Shown: positions 1 through 8,898 of the stretch, in pieces
Layout of the letters: each line of letters opens with the position of its first letter
Numbering within the stretch: position 1 is the stretch's first letter
DNA from: Escherichia coli
Lineage (GTDB): Bacteria; Pseudomonadota; Gammaproteobacteria; Enterobacterales; Enterobacteriaceae
Assembly: GCF_001677475.2 (NCBI RefSeq)
Contig: NZ_CP015229.1
DNA: 64,000 nucleotides
Reading direction: 5' to 3' (one strand)
Notes under the pieces: generated by a model
What the model saw: only the letters and a program-made list of their open reading frames with translations
What the model was told of the DNA's origin: nothing
Database searches by the model: none
Position numbers and translations under genes: made by a program

Positions 1-854
1 ATCATCGCCAAGGTCAAGATGGGTTGCCCCAGTTTTTCCCACAGTGCAAGGCGGTATTCGCTGCTGGGTTGCCCGGTTTCCTGCAAATAATGGATGTAAT
101 GATTAAGCTGACGGACAGAAAAAGTATTCCCCGGCATCGATAACTCTTCAAGATTCATACTGGTGAAGGCCGATTGGCAGGCAAGATTATCTAATGTTTC
201 CAGCGTTTCTTTGCCATTCAGCCATTTTTTATGATTCACACCATGCAGGATCCACGTTTTGTCGTCTTCAATGGTGGCACTGCGTGCATAAATGTAGGAT
301 TCGAGCGAAAGATCGTCACGATAATGAAAAATCTCCACGCCCACCGGCTGGCCCTGCTCGTTCAGCGATTTCACCGTCACAAATTCATTACCACGCCTGG
401 CCCACAGCATATTGCCGGTAATGTCATCGTCCTCCCCCAACGCAGTGGCGGTCGATTTGATTTGCAGCGCCTGTTGCTGCAATGGCGACGCCACCCACTC
501 ATCTATTGCGCCTAACGAAACAGTCCACAATATCCCAGCAACCAGCGCCACCAGTGCAATACGGAAGATAGAAAACCCAGTGCTGCGAATGGCGGTAAGC
601 TCACTGTTTTTCGATAACTGCCCCAGGCCGACAATCCCTCCCAATAAGGCGATAAACGGCGAAAGTTCGACCAGTGTGCGCGGTAAGGTCATCAGCACCA
701 CCAGCACCGCCTGAGTCCAGCGATAACCGCCCGGGCTGACATCATCCAGTTCGTTAATCAGGTTGAAGGTGGTAAAAAGCGGCAGCAATAGCCCTGCGGC
801 GGCGGCAAAACCGAGAAAGAGATGACGGATCAAATAGCGACTGAAAACATTCAT
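1..854 (-). CDS. LptG/YjgQ-family permease paralog, partial (C-terminus beyond window start)
   Basis: Hand translation of the minus strand from ATG at 854 gives MNVFSRYLIRHLFLGF... with a hydrophobic N-terminus, a conserved SELTAIRSTG segment and a long periplasmic-type middle region, open to position 1. Start overlaps the upstream stop as ATGA. Not in the ORF track because it runs off the window. Confidence 0.7.
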   Translation of the reverse strand, partial: MNVFSRYLIRHLFLGFAAAAGLLLPLFTTFNLINELDDVSPGGYRWTQAVLVVLMTLPRTLVELSPFIALLGGIVGLGQLSKNSELTAIRSTGFSIFRIALVALVAGILWTVSLGAIDEWVASPLQQQALQIKSTATALGEDDDITGNMLWARRGNEFVTVKSLNEQGQPVGVEIFHYRDDLSLESYIYARSATIEDDKTWILHGVNHKKWLNGKETLETLDNLACQSAFTSMNLEELSMPGNTFSVRQLNHYIHYLQETGQPSSEYRLALWEKLGQPILTLAM

Positions 855-1921
855 CGGGAAAATTTCTGCAGCAAAGAGAAGTCGCGTGCGACCAGCATCA
901 GCAGGCCCATTAGCATGAGTCCGGGCACTAACCACAAACCAGGAATGAGAGGAATCGCGCCGTTAGCCACCAGCGTACGGCAGACGTCGCCGCCATAAAA
1001 AATGGCAATAAACAGCAACGTCAGTGGCAATAACGTTGAAAATCGCCCCTGCCGCGGTTTTACCCGACTTAATGAAATGGCCAGCAGCGCCATCAACAAT
1101 GCTGTCAGGCCACGGCTTTGTCGCCATTGCAGTTCGGCATGATCGGCTGGAAAGACGGAGCGCGCCAGCTCCGTGACCGATTTTGCTTTGCGTTTGACGT
1201 TAGGGCTTTGATCCAGCGGATTCAGATGTAATTGCAGATTACGGTAGATCTGTTCGTTGTCGTCACGCCCCTGATGATCGAGAAGGTAGGCGGTCCCGTT
1301 ATGCAACATAACGGTCGGTTTCTCGGGTGATGGGTCAACCACATCAACCGAACGGGCGCGGAAAATGCGGGTTCGATTGGCAGTAGAAGTATAAATCAGC
1401 GCGTCAGTCAGGCGATTATTATCCTGATCAACCGTCTGCGAAAGGATCATTCGTCCGTTATCGTTAGTGTTAAATTTCTTTGCCCGCAACTGGCGAACAT
1501 CCAACTCCGACTGCGACTGTTGCTCCAGTTGATAAATCTGCGCATAAGCCCACGGACGACCATACATCGACAGAAGGGTGACAAAAATACTTAGCGGTAT
1601 CGCCAAATTAAGAACGGCTTTGTACAAGCGTCCCGGACTGCCCCCCGCCGCAGAGATAGCGGTAATTTCCGAGTCGGTATACATCTGCCCTAGCGTCACG
1701 CCAACTGACACATACAGTCCAACAGGTAACAACATCTCCAGTGCAATCAGCACTTTGTAGAAAACGATATCCAGCACAACATCAAGTGCTAATGTCCCAT
1801 TTGCCGCTTCGGTCAGATAACGCTGTGCGGAGTAGCTGGCGAAAATAAAGATCAGAAAACCGACGATAATCAGCACCAGACGGCGCGTACCACGCATGAT
1901 GTAGTGTTCAACCAGCTTCAT
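851..1921 (-). CDS. LptF/YjgP-family permease paralog (356 aa)
   Basis: ORF track 851..1921. The N-terminal TM region and the GQMYTDSEITAISAAG motif resemble LptF (GKLYTESEITVMHACG), followed by a ~150-aa hydrophilic insert and C-terminal TM helices. Start may instead be Met9. Confidence 0.75.
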   Translation of the reverse strand: MKLVEHYIMRGTRRLVLIIVGFLIFIFASYSAQRYLTEAANGTLALDVVLDIVFYKVLIALEMLLPVGLYVSVGVTLGQMYTDSEITAISAAGGSPGRLYKAVLNLAIPLSIFVTLLSMYGRPWAYAQIYQLEQQSQSELDVRQLRAKKFNTNDNGRMILSQTVDQDNNRLTDALIYTSTANRTRIFRARSVDVVDPSPEKPTVMLHNGTAYLLDHQGRDDNEQIYRNLQLHLNPLDQSPNVKRKAKSVTELARSVFPADHAELQWRQSRGLTALLMALLAISLSRVKPRQGRFSTLLPLTLLFIAIFYGGDVCRTLVANGAIPLIPGLWLVPGLMLMGLLMLVARDFSLLQKFSR

Positions 1922-1951
1922 CTCACTAACGCCCTCAATCCTTTGAGTTTT

Positions 1952-2515
1952 TTATTCATTGATCAGCTTCTGCGCCAGCGCAATGACATGATCTACCTCT
2001 TCCGGCGTCAGGCTGCCGTCCTTTGCCCACTGAATTTGCCCGGCTTTATTCAGCACCAGAATGGTTGAACTCTGCTCCGGCAAGCGCCAGGCAATGCGTC
2101 CCAGTCCATTGCCGTCAATAACGAATTGCGCCCACGGATAGCGGCGTTTATTTTTTTCGATTTTGCCAACGACAAAATAGCCGGTACCAAAAATGGCATC
2201 ATCGGTGTTCACAATGGTGGTGGGCTGAAAACGATCCTGCGGAAAGTTTGCCGCTTCAACCGCTTTAATTAACAGTGAGTTCTTTTTCTTCGCCGACTTA
2301 CGCCCAGCGATATACTGAATAATGCGAACTTTTCCCGCCAGCTGTGTGCTGTTCCACTTTTGGTAGTGAATTTCGTCGTCGCTATTCAGAAGCAGCTCGC
2401 CGCCTTCCTGGATATAAACAGGGGTAACCGTTTTGCCAGTGACGAAATTGTGTGCCTGCACACCCGGGGCTAAGAGCATGATAATCAGCGCAATAATCAA
2501 ACGAGATGACATCAT
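1952..2515 (-). CDS. YtfJ-family periplasmic protein (187 aa, signal peptide)
   Basis: N-terminal signal sequence MMSSRLIIALIIMLLAPGVQA; overall similarity to E. coli YtfJ from memory (motifs TTIVNTDDAI, QWAKDG.LTPEEV). Confidence 0.65.
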   Translation of the reverse strand: MMSSRLIIALIIMLLAPGVQAHNFVTGKTVTPVYIQEGGELLLNSDDEIHYQKWNSTQLAGKVRIIQYIAGRKSAKKKNSLLIKAVEAANFPQDRFQPTTIVNTDDAIFGTGYFVVGKIEKNKRRYPWAQFVIDGNGLGRIAWRLPEQSSTILVLNKAGQIQWAKDGSLTPEEVDHVIALAQKLINE

Positions 2516-2523
2516 TGCTCCGG

Positions 2524-3348
2524 TTATAGCGGAAAACGCGAAATCAGCAGCTCTAAGCGCTGGCGAATATCGCTATCCAGCGCCACCGGTGCATCATACG
2601 ACTGGCGGTTTTCCATATCATCCGCCACCATGTCGTCGTGTTTATCCCCCATCAGGCCATTAATGGCGGCGAGGAAACGGGAAATCTGTAACGCCTCTTT
2701 ATTTTCAGGATCAAGCGATCTTAGGGTGTCGTAATAAGAAACCTGCTGGCTGATGATTTTTCGCACATCATGAAATTCCCTGCCGGTTAGTCGCGGTTTG
2801 GCGATTATCTCTTTCAGGGTATGCATTTGCTTTTGCCGATAGGCAATAAAACCGCTTACGATTTCTAACTGGCTATGGCGTAATGAATAGTTCACCAACG
2901 ACCAGACCGGAGAGCTTAAATAAATTCGTAACAGGTTGCCGTAATACGACACAATATTTTTCTTACCGTTACGAAATCCGTCCTGAAAACGTCCCAGAAA
3001 AACGGTCGTTTTGCCGAATAAAAATCTGGCCTGATGCTTTTTTAAATACAGCCGTTGTGCAAAACGCAGATGCTTGTAGCGCGCTCGCATGTATTTAAAT
3101 TGTTTGCGCTCATCAGCAGTCAGCTCATCGCCTTTGGTCTGTTTGCGAATTAAACGCAGTAACTCCTGGCGATTAACGCCATTGAGCCAGAATTGCAGGC
3201 ATAACGCGTAATTATCATGGATGATTTCGGTGGTACAACTTAGTGCAATAGTCGGCGGCAAACTAACCTGTGCATCAACGACATCATCTTCTTCAATCGC
3301 AACAAATAGACGCTCGCTCGCCTCAAGCGGGAAATATTTTCTCATCAT
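2524..3348 (-). CDS. Hypothetical basic cytoplasmic protein (274 aa), function unknown
   Basis: Uninterrupted ORF; start overlaps the yghQ stop (ATGA); 8 bp before the next gene. No motif I recognise. Confidence 0.6.
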   Translation of the reverse strand: MMRKYFPLEASERLFVAIEEDDVVDAQVSLPPTIALSCTTEIIHDNYALCLQFWLNGVNRQELLRLIRKQTKGDELTADERKQFKYMRARYKHLRFAQRLYLKKHQARFLFGKTTVFLGRFQDGFRNGKKNIVSYYGNLLRIYLSSPVWSLVNYSLRHSQLEIVSGFIAYRQKQMHTLKEIIAKPRLTGREFHDVRKIISQQVSYYDTLRSLDPENKEALQISRFLAAINGLMGDKHDDMVADDMENRQSYDAPVALDSDIRQRLELLISRFPL

Positions 3349-4697
3349 CAGGATTTCTCTCCGGCTGCGTTATAAAGCAAGGAATGGCGCTGAAAAAATG
3401 CCTTTAAGGTTGGAATTAGCGAGAGCGCTACATCCAGACATTGCCCAGCGAAGTAAGCAAATGCAGCCCCCAGCACGCCAAACAGATGACAGAACATGAA
3501 CAGCAATACGATGTAGCCGATTGAGGCGATGGTTTGCGCCACGAGAAAAGCGCGCTGTTTTCCCGCCATCAATAGCAATGACTCCTGCGGGAAGCCCAGC
3601 ATCGAAATCACAATTGCGCCCAGCATCACCTGAATCAGGTCATACGCTTCGAGATACTTAACGCCAAACACCAGCGAAATGAGCGGCTTGCCGACGATCA
3701 ACACCGCGAGCGCCACCAGAATACCGATTCCGCCCGCCAGTAAACCGGACTTCACACCTAACAACCAAGGTCTGGTGGTGCGCGGATCTAAACGCATCAC
3801 CTCTGGGTAAAAACTTTTACCCAGCAAACCCGCTGGCGTTCCGGCGGCGTCGAAGAATGTCATGGCGATTTTAAATAACCCGGCGGCAGCGGGTCCTAAC
3901 ACGATCCCCACCAACACTGTGCTGCACGAATTACGCGCCGACCAGATGGAATGGGCAATGTTGGTTGACCAGACAAAACTCCACGAGCCTTTGATGTGTC
4001 GGGCAGACTCAAACAGATTCAATTTGAACGCGTTATGGACATTTCTGCGGCGTAATTCACGTGCGGCAAACCACCAGTACATGGTACCGCCAACAAGATT
4101 CGAGGCGTACCAGGCAATAACAAAACCCGCAAAACCAAAGTCAAAATACCAGGCAACGACGCTCCCCGCTGCACGCAGAAAAGGTTTCGTCGCCTGCTGT
4201 ACAGCAATTAAATCGAAGCGATCTACCGCACGCAGAATGCCGGTCGGCGTGGAGGAAGCCATTGAAGGAATGAGCGTGCAATAGAGCGCTGCCAGCCAAA
4301 AACTTTGGTCATCCAGACCTAATGAATGGGAAAGGAATGGCAGTAAGGCAATGCCGCCGACAATCGCCACCGCGCCGCTGACGATATCCAGCGAGAAGGA
4401 AAAAGAGACGACATTGCGAAATTGCTGCGGATTATTGTTGGTTAATGCTGGTGTTCCGTACTGAACCACCAGCTGCCATGTCTGAAACTTAATAAAATCG
4501 CTGATCGACTTGGCGTACGATTGCACAATCACCAGTACGCCAAACATGGCGGGCGTCATCCCTTTACCGGCACACGAGAGCGCCAACAGACCCAGCAAGG
4601 CGCTCACGACATTACTGGAGCCTAACCAGGCGCTATTGCGAATAATGGTGCGAAACGCGCCATCTGCAAACCAATGTTTGATGTTAAAACCCGCCAA
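3348..4697 (-). CDS. yghQ: Putative MOP/Wzx-type polysaccharide or lipid flippase, full-length 449 aa
   Basis: Polytopic membrane protein of the polysaccharide-biosynthesis (flippase) family; position immediately downstream of yghR as in K-12, where I recall YghQ as a shorter 355-aa product. Confidence 0.8.
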   Translation of the reverse strand: MAGFNIKHWFADGAFRTIIRNSAWLGSSNVVSALLGLLALSCAGKGMTPAMFGVLVIVQSYAKSISDFIKFQTWQLVVQYGTPALTNNNPQQFRNVVSFSFSLDIVSGAVAIVGGIALLPFLSHSLGLDDQSFWLAALYCTLIPSMASSTPTGILRAVDRFDLIAVQQATKPFLRAAGSVVAWYFDFGFAGFVIAWYASNLVGGTMYWWFAARELRRRNVHNAFKLNLFESARHIKGSWSFVWSTNIAHSIWSARNSCSTVLVGIVLGPAAAGLFKIAMTFFDAAGTPAGLLGKSFYPEVMRLDPRTTRPWLLGVKSGLLAGGIGILVALAVLIVGKPLISLVFGVKYLEAYDLIQVMLGAIVISMLGFPQESLLLMAGKQRAFLVAQTIASIGYIVLLFMFCHLFGVLGAAFAYFAGQCLDVALSLIPTLKAFFQRHSLLYNAAGEKS

Positions 4698-4741
4698 TTC
4701 AGCCTGAACTTATCGTTGATAGTAAAAAGTATCCGCCAGCC

Positions 4742-5500
4742 TTAAGTTAAACTTCGGCGGTCAGAAACGATGGCAACCAGAGAAACCGCCTTCTGTGCCT
4801 GTTCCAGCACTTCGCTGTAGGGCGCTCTGGAATCAATCTCAAGAATTTTTGTGCCGTTATAGCCAATCGTCGACATGACGCCGATTTTGTCCTGCAGCTC
4901 GGCATAGTCATGGTCAGGCTTGCGGGAGATGGCAGTATCAATATCAATCCCCAAACGAATGATTAATTCAGGACGGTATTGCGCCATTTGTTGGTATAAA
5001 CGCCGTTCGCGCTGCGCCAGAAACATGCTGATTTTCCCGGTCGCACGTTCGACGCCGATCCCCGGTCCGTCATAATAAAAGCCCGAAATTTCAGCCTGCG
5101 GGAAGCGATCGCTGACCACCAGAACGCCACTTTGCGCCAGTCGCTGAACCTTGCGTAGATTCGCCATTCTTCGCAGCGAGAAGCAGTACATAATCACCGC
5201 CGCCCATAGCGCTGGAGATTTGGTTTTCATGCTTTGGGTTTTCGAGGATTTGGCCGCCAGTCGCCGTTCGAGCCAGACGCCAACCAACGGCAATCGTTTG
5301 ATTTTGTCGCCGTCTTCGCCGGAGAGCAGCCCCAGATAGCGGCGCTCAGTTTGCCAGTGTTGTTGCAGCGATTTCACCAGGTCAGTGGTCAGTGTGGATT
5401 TACCGGTGCCATCACACCCGACCACCGCAATCAGCCCCGGAATGTAGTTGGGCTGCGGCGCGGTTGTACTATTAACAGTTTGTGTTTGTAGTGCATCCAT
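4742..5500 (-). CDS. yghR: P-loop NTPase / kinase-like ATP-binding protein (252 aa)
   Basis: Walker A VVGCDGTGKST, DRFPQ and ARKPDH motifs; length and position match K-12 yghR. Confidence 0.85.
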   Translation of the reverse strand: MDALQTQTVNSTTAPQPNYIPGLIAVVGCDGTGKSTLTTDLVKSLQQHWQTERRYLGLLSGEDGDKIKRLPLVGVWLERRLAAKSSKTQSMKTKSPALWAAVIMYCFSLRRMANLRKVQRLAQSGVLVVSDRFPQAEISGFYYDGPGIGVERATGKISMFLAQRERRLYQQMAQYRPELIIRLGIDIDTAISRKPDHDYAELQDKIGVMSTIGYNGTKILEIDSRAPYSEVLEQAQKAVSLVAIVSDRRSLT

Positions 5501-5529
5501 TCGTTAAATCATCCCTATCCATTTGGTGA

Positions 5530-6243
5530 TCAGGAAAGCGCGGCGTGAATTGCGCGTAGTGACGCTTGCAGAATTTCATCGGCTGGTTGCCGACCATCCA
5601 GTTCAAGGATCTTTGCGCCATTGAATGTCAGTTGCGGCGTAACGGCGATTTTTTCCTGTAACGCTGCCAGTTGGTGGTCAGGTTTACGCGCAAACGCGGT
5701 TTGTTCATCAATGCCAAGACGAATCAACAATACGGGCAAATAAGACGCCATCCATTGGTACAGCTTCAGCTCGCGCTGCCTTAACATTTTTATCCAACCG
5801 TTACCGCCCGTAGTTTTTGCCAATTGCGGGCCATCAAAGCGAAAACCCGGCACTTCAACCTGCGGGTAGCGGTCGGTGATGAGCAGATAGCCTTGCTGGC
5901 TTTTACACAACATTTTGCGAAACTTGTACGCCCGCCAGCAGGAAAGCAGATAGATAACCAGTGCAGTAATATTGCCAGGCGGTGTTGAGGGCTTTTCGTG
6001 CACATGTGCCGCTTTACTTCGCAGATAACGCCCAAAAGATGCGCCAATAATGGGCAGCTGTGAAATCCATTCGCCAATTCGCCCGGACGATTGCCCGAGA
6101 TAAATGTGTTCTGTTGGCATTCTTGCTGCCAGTTCATTTACCAGGCTTGCCGTGAGGGTCGATTTACCTGAACCATCACATCCTACAATGGCAATAACAC
6201 GCACTGGCGTGGAATTAATTATTGACATATTACGTTGATTCAC
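5530..6243 (-). CDS. yghS: P-loop NTPase / kinase-like ATP-binding protein (237 aa)
   Basis: Walker A IVGCDGSGKST, DRYPQ and ARKPDH motifs; paralog of yghR. Confidence 0.85.
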   Translation of the reverse strand: MNQRNMSIINSTPVRVIAIVGCDGSGKSTLTASLVNELAARMPTEHIYLGQSSGRIGEWISQLPIIGASFGRYLRSKAAHVHEKPSTPPGNITALVIYLLSCWRAYKFRKMLCKSQQGYLLITDRYPQVEVPGFRFDGPQLAKTTGGNGWIKMLRQRELKLYQWMASYLPVLLIRLGIDEQTAFARKPDHQLAALQEKIAVTPQLTFNGAKILELDGRQPADEILQASLRAIHAALS

Positions 6244-6416
6244 GAAAAACCCGGCAGCAAATAATGTATTGAATATTACGTGGTCCGTGCTCAGAATATC
6301 CGTTCAACCTTATTGTGACAATGGTTAATTGTGACATTGACCTGAATTACGCTTTCATAAAAACATATTAACCAAATAAATATTTTTAATGGATATTTAA
6401 ATTAAAGGATATATTC
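6244..6416. promoter_or_regulatory. Divergent yghS / yghT promoter region with direct repeat of ATTGTGACA
   Basis: AT-rich 173 bp between divergent starts; (t/a)ATTGTGACA at 6311-6320 and 6327-6336. Confidence 0.4.
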
Positions 6417-7109
6417 ATGCAGTCAATAACACCTCCATTAATTGCCGTTATTGGTAGCGATGGTTCAGGCAAGTCAACGGTGTGTGAACATCTCATTACC
6501 GTTGTCGAAAAATATGGTGCTGCCGAAAGAGTTCATTTAGGAAAACAGGCCGGAAATGTCGGTCGTGCAGTGACAAAATTACCGTTGATGGGAAAATCCT
6601 TACATAAAACAATTGAACGAAATCAGGTGAAAACAGCAAAAAAATTGCCTGGCCCTGTTCCGGCGCTGGTAATTACAGCGTTTGTCGCCCGTCGCTTACT
6701 GCGCTTTCGTCATATGCTTGCCTGTCGTCGTCGCGGGTTAATTGTTCTAACCGACCGTTATCCTCAGGACCAAATTCCTGGCGCTTACGATGGTACGGTG
6801 TTCCCACCTAACGTTGAAGGTGGTCGTTTTGTCTCATGGCTGGCAAGCCAGGAACGTAAAGCGTTTCACTGGATGGCGAGCCATAAACCTGATCTGGTCA
6901 TCAAACTCAATGTCGACCTTGAAGTTGCCTGCGCGCGTAAACCCGACCATAAACGGGAATCGCTGGCGAGGAAGATTGCCATAACGCCACAGTTAACCTT
7001 TGGTGGTGCACAACTGGTTGATATCGACGCCAATCAGCCACTGGAAAAGGTGCTGGTTGATGCAGAAAAAGCGATTACGGATTTTATGATCGCGCGTGGT
7101 TATCACTAG
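6417..7109 (+). CDS. yghT: P-loop NTPase / kinase-like ATP-binding protein (230 aa)
   Basis: Walker [17 protein letters not shown] and ARKPDH motifs; third paralog, divergently transcribed. Confidence 0.85.
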
Positions 7110-8657: not shown

Positions 8658-8898
8658 ATATTAGATTACGCCATTTTGAATTTACGAACGGACGCATTAT
8701 CAGTGACTTTAACGGCGTGGGCAAAGTGAAATATCATTTTTTAACGATAAAAAGAGTGTTATTTCTTGTGTATCAGACAATAAGCATTCATTCAAAACCT
8801 TTAGAATTAATCAAAACATAGCTATTCCACTGGTTAATACATTCACATATGAAATAAATAAATATTGGAACATATAAATATTGAATATTTTGATTAAT

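Follow-up and report, generated by a model that had tools for sequence, protein, structure and literature searches.

A repeated word in the divergent yghS/yghT spacer of Escherichia coli is best explained as an ordinary promoter element and a lineage-specific near-copy

The yghS/yghT spacer and its repeated word

The window analyzed here, a 64-kb stretch of Escherichia coli DNA, carries two divergently transcribed paralogs, yghS and yghT, that are separated by a short and AT-rich intergenic region. On the minus strand, yghS occupies positions 5530–6243 and is the first gene of its transcription unit, with a GTG start at 6243 whose position is matched by an aligned ATG in Pseudocitrobacter. On the plus strand, yghT occupies positions 6417–7109 and begins with the ATG at 6417. 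The two proteins share 37% identity (E 6e-55). The spacer between the genes (6244–6416) is 173 bp long and has a GC content of 30%, as against approximately 50% in its flanks and in the genes themselves. The order of genes at the locus is yghQ, yghR, and yghS on the minus strand, yghT on the plus strand, and then pitB and gss, again on the minus strand. The locus was found in 4,706 of 5,426 complete E. coli genomes, and the 351-bp query from this region has 99.4% identity to K-12 derivatives, whereas several human isolates match it completely (100%). A search of Rfam with this region returned RNA-family matches at chance level only.

Within the spacer, the word ATTGTGACA occurs twice on the plus strand as an exact match, at 6312–6320 (copy 1) and at 6328–6336 (copy 2), and these are its only matches in the window. 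The starts of the copies are 16 bp apart, and when the comparison is extended to 12-mers (ATTGTGACAATG and ATTGTGACATTG), 11 of 12 positions agree. An earlier note on this DNA had described two identical words 16 bp apart, preceded by t or a, in a 173-bp spacer between divergent paralogs. This description and its coordinates are correct, including the preceding base, which is T for copy 1 (6311) and A for copy 2 (6327). Copy 1 lies inside a perfect 11-bp palindrome, ATTGT-G-ACAAT (6312–6322). A second repeat with a 16-bp period, unrelated to the first, is found 70 bp away.

By itself, the repeat is no more than would be expected by chance. When the window was shuffled 100 times, 14 of the shuffled sequences had the 9-mer at least twice. 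Among dinucleotide-shuffled versions of the spacer, 4.4% had exact direct repeats of 9 nt or more lying within 30 bp of each other, and 15% had them at any distance. Additionally, 11 local direct repeats of 9 nt or longer, with periods of 10–30, are present in the window, most of them at a local G+C typical of coding sequence. Because several such repeats are expected per 64 kb, the case for a function must rest on conservation and position.

Conservation of the two copies and a predicted yghS promoter

Orthologous spacers were collected in two ways. One scan covered Escherichia species together with the cryptic clades, three Pseudocitrobacter, Shimwellia, Pluralibacter, and two Erwinia. Further spacers were obtained through protein searches and the corresponding contigs, and these came from E. 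albertii, two Citrobacter, Hafnia, Mangrovibacter, Serratia, a contig labeled as Klebsiella, and Sodalis. The divergent yghS/yghT pair is present in every genus collected. An anchored alignment that is gap-free around copy 1 comprises 10 spacers from five genera, that is, Escherichia, Citrobacter, Hafnia, Pseudocitrobacter, and Shimwellia. In the spacers from Pluralibacter, Erwinia, Serratia, Klebsiella, Mangrovibacter, and Sodalis, neither copy is recognizable and the -35/-10 arrangement described below is lost.

Across the 10 aligned spacers, copy 1 retains six to nine of its nine bases with GTGACA invariant, and the block GTGACAAT (6315–6322) is unchanged in 10 of 10. Immediately left of GTGAC, three bases differ among the spacers (ATT, GTT, GTC, and GCC), so that the palindrome is not kept. 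All nine bases of copy 2 are found only in E. coli and Escherichia sp. E1V33. Eight of the nine remain in E. albertii and E. whittamii (with TGTGGCA), seven in Hafnia and Shimwellia, five in Citrobacter L016 and Pseudocitrobacter, and three in C. amalonaticus. When the copies are compared with each other within one species, they agree at 9/9 positions in E. coli and E1V33, at 8/9 in E. albertii and E. whittamii, and at 2–6/9 in the other genera. The earlier note had tied its reading to conservation of the repeat in related strains; checked over five genera, the two words are not kept as a pair outside Escherichia. Within E. coli, the 43-bp block that contains the repeat is identical in 4,512 of the 4,684 genomes having the block (96%), and flanking 43-bp control blocks are identical in 85% and 99% of genomes, so that conservation within the species does not discriminate.

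The position of copy 1 points to a promoter. A consensus scan of positions 6150–6500 returned a single promoter-like site, which lies on the minus strand and consists of TTGTCA (6321..6316) and TATTCT (6298..6293) separated by a 17-bp spacer (6299–6315). The predicted -35 box of the yghS operon, TTGTCA at 6316–6321, falls within copy 1 and within the invariant GTGACAAT, and the predicted -10 box, TATTCT, falls at 6293–6298. With an approximate sigma-70 log-odds matrix built from hexamer frequencies, the same site scores 9.0 bits and is the top site on either strand within the spacer. It also ranks first, at the aligned position, in the three Escherichia sequences scanned, in both Pseudocitrobacter species, and in Shimwellia. 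TTGTCA matches TTGACA at 5/6 positions, and TATTCT matches the -10 consensus at 4/6 positions, including A2 and T6. Furthermore, Escherichia, Citrobacter, Hafnia, and Pseudocitrobacter all have CAGAATAT with the 17-bp spacing unchanged; the equivalent in Shimwellia is CAGGATAT, in which TTGTCA-16-TATCCT has a 16-bp spacer.

Based on this conservation and on the promoter scans, it seems likely that the invariant block represents a -35 hexamer plus one flanking base on each side. The asymmetry of the region, in which an invariant block is bordered by varying bases on its left, fits a -35 hexamer and not a symmetric operator. We propose that copy 1, read on the minus strand, would provide the -35 box (TTGTCA) of a promoter for yghS and the genes that follow it, and that this box would pair with TATTCT 17 bp downstream. 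The predicted -10 box would place the yghS start site near 6286, with approximately 43 nt of leader before the GTG start at 6243, and the near-palindromic shape of copy 1 (TTGT-G-ACAA) would be incidental. We therefore favor the hypothesis that copy 1 is the -35 box of a weak, H-NS-silenced yghS promoter and that copy 2 is not a second functional copy, and we assign it a probability of roughly 0.6.

The predicted promoter resembles the sigma-70 promoters of divergent units in enterobacteria in several respects, namely the TTGTCA hexamer (5/6), the 17-bp spacing to TATTCT, the location approximately 80 bp upstream of the start codon, the conservation of hexamers and spacing across genera, and a weak occupancy by sigma-70 and RNA polymerase in vivo. 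It differs in having a -35 box that is embedded in an 11-bp palindrome, a near-identical word 16 bp upstream, and a -10 box that matches the consensus at only 4/6 positions, the last of which counts against the promoter model. In the accessible parts of the start-site tables of Kim 2012 and Cho 2014, no transcription start site is listed near the spacer.

The spacer would hold ordinary sigma-70 promoters for both divergent units, although the assignment on the yghT side is tentative. The candidate yghT -10 box, TATTTT, lies at 6381–6386 on the plus strand, where it would give a start near 6393, and has no good -35 partner in E. coli. Its TATTT is invariant in the first alignment and is not clearly alignable in Citrobacter and Hafnia. 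Shimwellia and Pluralibacter have TTGAGG-17-TATTTT at this site and Erwinia aphidicola has TTGAAG-17-TATTTT, with the distance to the ATG unchanged. A different yghT promoter, composed of TTGACC-18-AAACAT on the plus strand (6.8 bits) with TTGACC abutting copy 2, was considered and rejected. This arrangement is unconserved within Escherichia, given that TTGACC is replaced by TTCACT in Escherichia sp. E1V33 and by TTGGTC in E. albertii.

Copy 2 is only partly retained among the genera. Its left part, TAATTGT (6326–6332), is semi-conserved with the consensus TaatTGT over five genera; it corresponds to positions -40 to -46 of the predicted yghS promoter and reads ACAATTA on the yghS sense strand. 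Judged by its position and A/T richness, TAATTGT could be a proximal UP-element-like subsite, where it may offer an A/T-rich contact for the alpha subunit of RNA polymerase, or it may simply be AT-rich promoter DNA. In Shimwellia, the TTGTGAC core of copy 2 recurs with the words again 16 bp apart, and Hafnia and Citrobacter retain ATTGTG. There is therefore some constraint at the position of copy 2 for which the -35 assignment does not account, and this counts against the promoter model. Only in the E. coli lineage is copy 2 exactly identical to copy 1, and this identity would reflect either coincidence or a small local duplication. Copy 2 is best explained as a near-copy that is specific to its lineage and lies in AT-rich upstream DNA, and the chance that it forms part of an operator is small.

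It could also be supposed that the pair has no function at all. Copy 2 would then have arisen by a small local duplication or by slippage, or would match copy 1 by chance within AT-rich DNA, and the words would reflect base composition only. The chance rates are in line with this view (4.4% of shuffled spacers have such a repeat within 30 bp, and the window has 11 comparable ones), as are the unrelated repeat of the same period 70 bp away and the lack of conservation of copy 2 outside Escherichia. However, GTGACAAT is invariant over five genera whereas YghT is only 79–87% identical to the query, which argues that the block is not neutral. Furthermore, the genera show no 16-bp length difference, so that any duplication would have to be old. 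We consider it improbable that the words are devoid of function.

CRP and other candidate regulators

Two kinds of regulator had been proposed for the repeat: CRP, on the grounds that TGTGA is its half-site, or a dedicated regulator that would bind the direct repeats and control both transcription units. With regard to CRP, TGTGA is perfect in both copies, and the flanking AT-rich bases (AATT/TATT) are common in real sites. The known site, TGTGA-N6-TCACA, is an inverted repeat, whereas the repeat found here is direct, and the partner half-sites 6 bp away (TTAAT and CCTGA) match TCACA at 2/5 positions each. We scored both sites with an approximate CRP matrix derived from 15 classic sites. The copy-1 site obtained 4.6 bits and ranked 156 in the window. 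The copy-2 site obtained 11.5 bits and ranked 4 of approximately 64,000 positions, a score that lies at the bottom of the in-sample range of the real sites; approximately 10 positions in the window reach at least 10 bits with this matrix.

One form that CRP control could take is that copy 2 provides the strong half of a marginal CRP-like 22-mer, AATTGTGACATTGACCTGAATT (6327–6348, plus strand), through which cAMP would control one or both promoters. In its favor, AATTGTGA makes a good left half, the 22-mer ranks fourth in the 64-kb window with its 11.5 bits, and genuine sites with a poor second half exist, gal and malT being examples. However, its right half matches at only 2/5 positions, its score is at the lower limit for real sites in a window where some 10 positions reach at least 10 bits, and the copy-1 site, at 4.6 bits, contributes little. 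The TGTGA of copy 2 is moreover unconserved. It is changed to TGTGG in E. albertii, E. whittamii, and Hafnia, and it is lost in Citrobacter L016 (TGTCG), C. amalonaticus (TAGCG), and Pseudocitrobacter (TGTCA). The center of the 22-mer at 6337.5 would lie at approximately -51.5 for yghS and approximately -55.5 for yghT, which is out of phase with the known CRP positions of -41.5, -61.5, and -72.5, the start sites used here being predicted ones. A full-text literature search on yghS and yghT found no link to CRP. Taken together, these observations make CRP control through copy 2 very unlikely.

As for a dedicated regulator, the 16-bp spacing corresponds to approximately 1.5 helical turns and puts the copies on opposite faces of the DNA, out of phase for tandem binding, for which spacings of about 10–11 or 21 bp would be in phase. 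No regulator gene is annotated in a 24-kb E. coli locus (L014) that includes most of the cluster, with yghO cut at the edge, and that comes from a strain matching the window at every position of the 351-bp query. Similarly, no regulator gene is evident in the 3-kb flanks of the pairs from Pseudocitrobacter, Shimwellia, Pluralibacter, and Erwinia. Neither yghS nor yghT appears in the supplement of a 2021 ChIP-exo study of y-gene transcription factors, and a literature search for the motif words produced unrelated matches only, such as primers and viral sequences. The one report of binding in the spacer that we found is a weak FlhDC peak in a genomic-SELEX data set, for which the predicted site lies inside yghT (PMC9962212).

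A further possibility is an operator for a factor encoded elsewhere, which would overlap the yghS -35 box and repress yghS, and would perhaps also control yghT. Such an operator might consist of the two near-palindromic words, bound by two dimers 16 bp apart, or of the inverted repeat ACAAT-N5-ATTGT (6318–6332, centered at 6325), which combines the right arm of copy 1 with the left arm of copy 2 and arises because both words are near-palindromes. The inverted repeat has one match in the window, and at least one match was obtained in 8 of 100 shuffles. The conserved stretch does extend past the -35 hexamer, as GTGACAATg..TaatTGT; ACAAT-N5-ATTGT is intact in E. coli, Citrobacter L016, and Hafnia, GTGAC occurs twice at the 16-bp spacing in Shimwellia, and the absence of a good -35 box from the E. 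coli yghT promoter could mean that this promoter depends on an activator. The conservation of the inverted repeat is asymmetric, however, with an invariant left half and a right half that is broken in C. amalonaticus and retained at 4/5 positions in Pseudocitrobacter and Shimwellia. The lack of a regulator gene in the cluster and its flanks also counts against an operator, as does the absence of both genes from the ChIP-exo supplement, and the sole genomic-SELEX match is the weak FlhDC peak with its site inside yghT.

The pattern TTATTGTSA bears on the same question. It has three matches in the 24-kb locus, all in the two divergent spacers of the cluster, as against 0.47 expected, which would favor an operator, but the pattern was chosen after it had been seen. 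As a motif shared by the cluster it was rejected, the two copies in the yghO/acyl-AMP-ligase spacer being absent in Hafnia, C. farmeri, and Pseudocitrobacter. On balance, we regard an operator for a factor encoded elsewhere as unlikely. A more specific version holds that GTGACAATG..TAATTGT, including ACAAT-N5-ATTGT, is an operator that switches on the accessory half of the sphingolipid cluster, and that the E. coli repeat is a strengthened version of it; if true, this half would comprise the kinase-like proteins YghR, YghS, and YghT together with a flippase-like protein and an LptFG-like exporter. We offer this version as a speculation that is rather unlikely to hold.

Resemblance to known operators was also considered. 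Operators of the GntR/FadR type have GT-Nx-AC cores, of which the DgoR operator, TTGTA-N-TACAA, is one example, and the perfect ATTGT-G-ACAAT palindrome around copy 1 has such a GT-N-AC core. In contrast to such operators, the left arm varies here among the aligned spacers (GTTGT, GTCGT, and GCCGT), and the cluster has no GntR-family gene. The gene glcC, a known neighbor in K-12, is outside the 24-kb locus. Motifs for Fur, ArcA, PhoB, OmpR, FNR, and SlyA, compared by eye, were dismissed, with at most approximately half of their positions fitting.

There is thus no good evidence for a CRP site or for a dedicated regulator at the repeat. What stands from the earlier note is that the words sit in a divergent promoter region, where copy 1 coincides with a conserved -35 box. 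Its two regulatory proposals are not supported. The CRP scan that it suggested gave scores of 4.6 and 11.5 bits, with partner halves at 2/5 and an unconserved TGTGA in copy 2, and a dedicated regulator on direct repeats is disfavored by the loss of the pair outside Escherichia, by the phase of the 16-bp spacing, and by the lack of a nearby regulator gene.

Probable H-NS silencing and the sphingolipid cluster

We placed the spacer in K-12 with the help of the yghS A166V mutation at 3,133,461 (NC_000913.3), which puts it at 3,131,981–3,132,153 in the older version of the sequence. The offset between the two versions, which we take to be 1,977 bp, was checked against the position of rho. In NC_000913.3, the predicted starts would fall at about 3,134,000 for yghS and about 3,134,107 for yghT. 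Two ChIP-chip regions listed by Cho et al. (2014) cover the spacer in K-12, RNAP_1451 (3131963–3132313) and SigD_1244 (3131988–3132412) (PMC3923258, Tables S2 and S3). Their intensities are very low, 0–0.55 for RNA polymerase and 0–0.33 for sigma-70, where well-bound regions reach 2–3 (PMC3923258). Because the regions are 350–425 bp wide, it cannot be told from them which of the two promoters is bound. Additionally, two H-NS data sets include yghS, whose expression goes up 3.1-fold on SlyA overexpression (PMC5797941).

Given an AT-rich spacer in a part of the genome that is repressed by H-NS, the yghS promoter is probably weak and mostly silent in laboratory K-12, and antagonists of H-NS such as SlyA would partly relieve it. 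We infer that H-NS acts at exactly this spacer. A weak, AT-rich, H-NS-silenced sigma-70 promoter agrees with all of the published signals. The locus shares with others that are silenced by H-NS and relieved by SlyA or LeuO a spacer of 30% GC, a listing among H-NS targets, a response to SlyA (3.1-fold), and very low RNA polymerase signal in K-12. Unlike H-NS-silenced loci of horizontally acquired or accessory nature, it has genes of approximately 50% GC. Measured against the loose SlyA motif TTA-N6-TAA, TTATTGTGACAA matches 5 of the 6 fixed bases only.

Taken as a whole, the two words are real, and they are best explained as an ordinary promoter element and a lineage-specific near-copy that do not form a functional pair. 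For an uncharacterized gene pair, this analysis adds a plausible conserved sigma-70 promoter and removes a weak reading in terms of CRP or a dedicated regulator. The setting of this promoter gives it a wider meaning. In E. coli other than K-12, yghS heads a seven-gene minus-strand unit composed of yghS, yghR, yghQ, an ORF of 274 aa, a YtfJ-family gene, an lptF-like gene, and an lptG-like gene, and beside this unit are found spt (serine palmitoyltransferase), an acyl carrier protein gene, an acyl-AMP ligase gene, an epimerase gene, and yghO. These five neighboring genes have been described as a sphingolipid/dihydroceramide cluster in E. coli BL21 (PMC9386255). The location and weakness of the predicted promoter, together with the H-NS listing, offer a starting point for turning the cluster on and for asking about the production and export of sphingolipids by E. 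coli. In K-12, the cluster is broken by IS5. In Serratia, Mangrovibacter, and the Klebsiella-labeled contig, the immediate neighbors of yghT are spt and the carrier protein gene.

Gene content of the yghS unit and its neighbours

Downstream of the predicted yghS promoter lies a minus-strand unit of seven genes (window 1-7109; positions 1-12960 of L014, the annotated 24-kb E. coli locus that holds most of the sphingolipid cluster). It encodes the kinase-like YghS and YghR, the flippase-like YghQ, a 274-aa ORF product without a Pfam match, a YtfJ-family protein, and LptF-like and LptG-like permeases. Adjoining this unit are spt, yghO and the genes for an acyl carrier protein, an acyl-AMP ligase and an epimerase, that is, the sphingolipid/dihydroceramide cluster described in E. 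coli BL21 (PMC9386255). We suggest that the accessory genes of the yghS unit may phosphorylate and export the lipid product of this cluster.

In Mangrovibacter, Serratia and a Klebsiella-labelled contig (L019-L021, positions 2297-3720), spt and the gene for an 86-aa acyl carrier protein come directly after yghT, an arrangement that links yghT with the sphingolipid genes; the spt product has 390 aa and belongs to aminotransferase class I/II. The place after yghT is taken by a PitB-like phosphate transporter in Escherichia, Citrobacter, Hafnia and Pseudocitrobacter. In the K-12 derivative MFDpir (L001 1-1545), IS5 truncates yghQ and has removed the rest of the cluster, such that only yghR, yghS, yghT and the yghS/yghT promoter region are left in K-12. 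Owing to this loss, K-12 expression data may have little to tell about the intact system. The protein fragment encoded by a 262-bp low-coverage contig labelled Nocardioides malaquae (L013) shares 98% identity with E. coli YghT, and the presence of this contig in an actinobacterial assembly is almost certainly due to E. coli contamination.

Sequence words in the divergent spacers

Two words similar to copy 1, the 9-base word read as the -35 box of yghS (window 6312-6320), lie within the divergent spacer between yghO and the acyl-AMP ligase gene: TTATTGTGA (L014 1338-1346, minus strand) and TTATTGTCA (L014 1445-1453, plus strand). Across the 24-kb locus, the pattern TTATTGTSA has three matches, all of them inside the cluster's two divergent spacers. 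The TTATTGTGA and TTATTGTCA words are not kept in Hafnia, C. farmeri or Pseudocitrobacter. In Sodalis (L022, about 1400-1440), the GC-rich palindrome CCCGGCCGGGAGCCCGG is inserted between the -10-like AAGATAT and a TTGTGAC word and thus disrupts the promoter geometry of the other genera.

A weak FlhDC genomic-SELEX peak has been assigned to the yghS/yghT spacer (PMC9962212). The site predicted for that peak falls at window 6547-6590, within the yghT coding region and outside the spacer, and its printed coordinate disagrees with the position of its sequence.

Other repeats with a 16-bp period

The yghS/yghT spacer contains a second direct repeat, TTAATGGATAT / TTAAAGGATAT (window 6386-6396 and 6402-6412), with the same 16-bp period as the first. 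The yghT Shine-Dalgarno (AAGGA) lies within its second copy, and GGATAT occurs inverted at window 6296-6301, within the yghS -10 region. An exact repeat of ATAAATATTG, also with a 16-bp period, is found at window 8858-8883 in a stretch of 28% GC that lies past the start of pitB and appears to be the spacer between pitB and gss.
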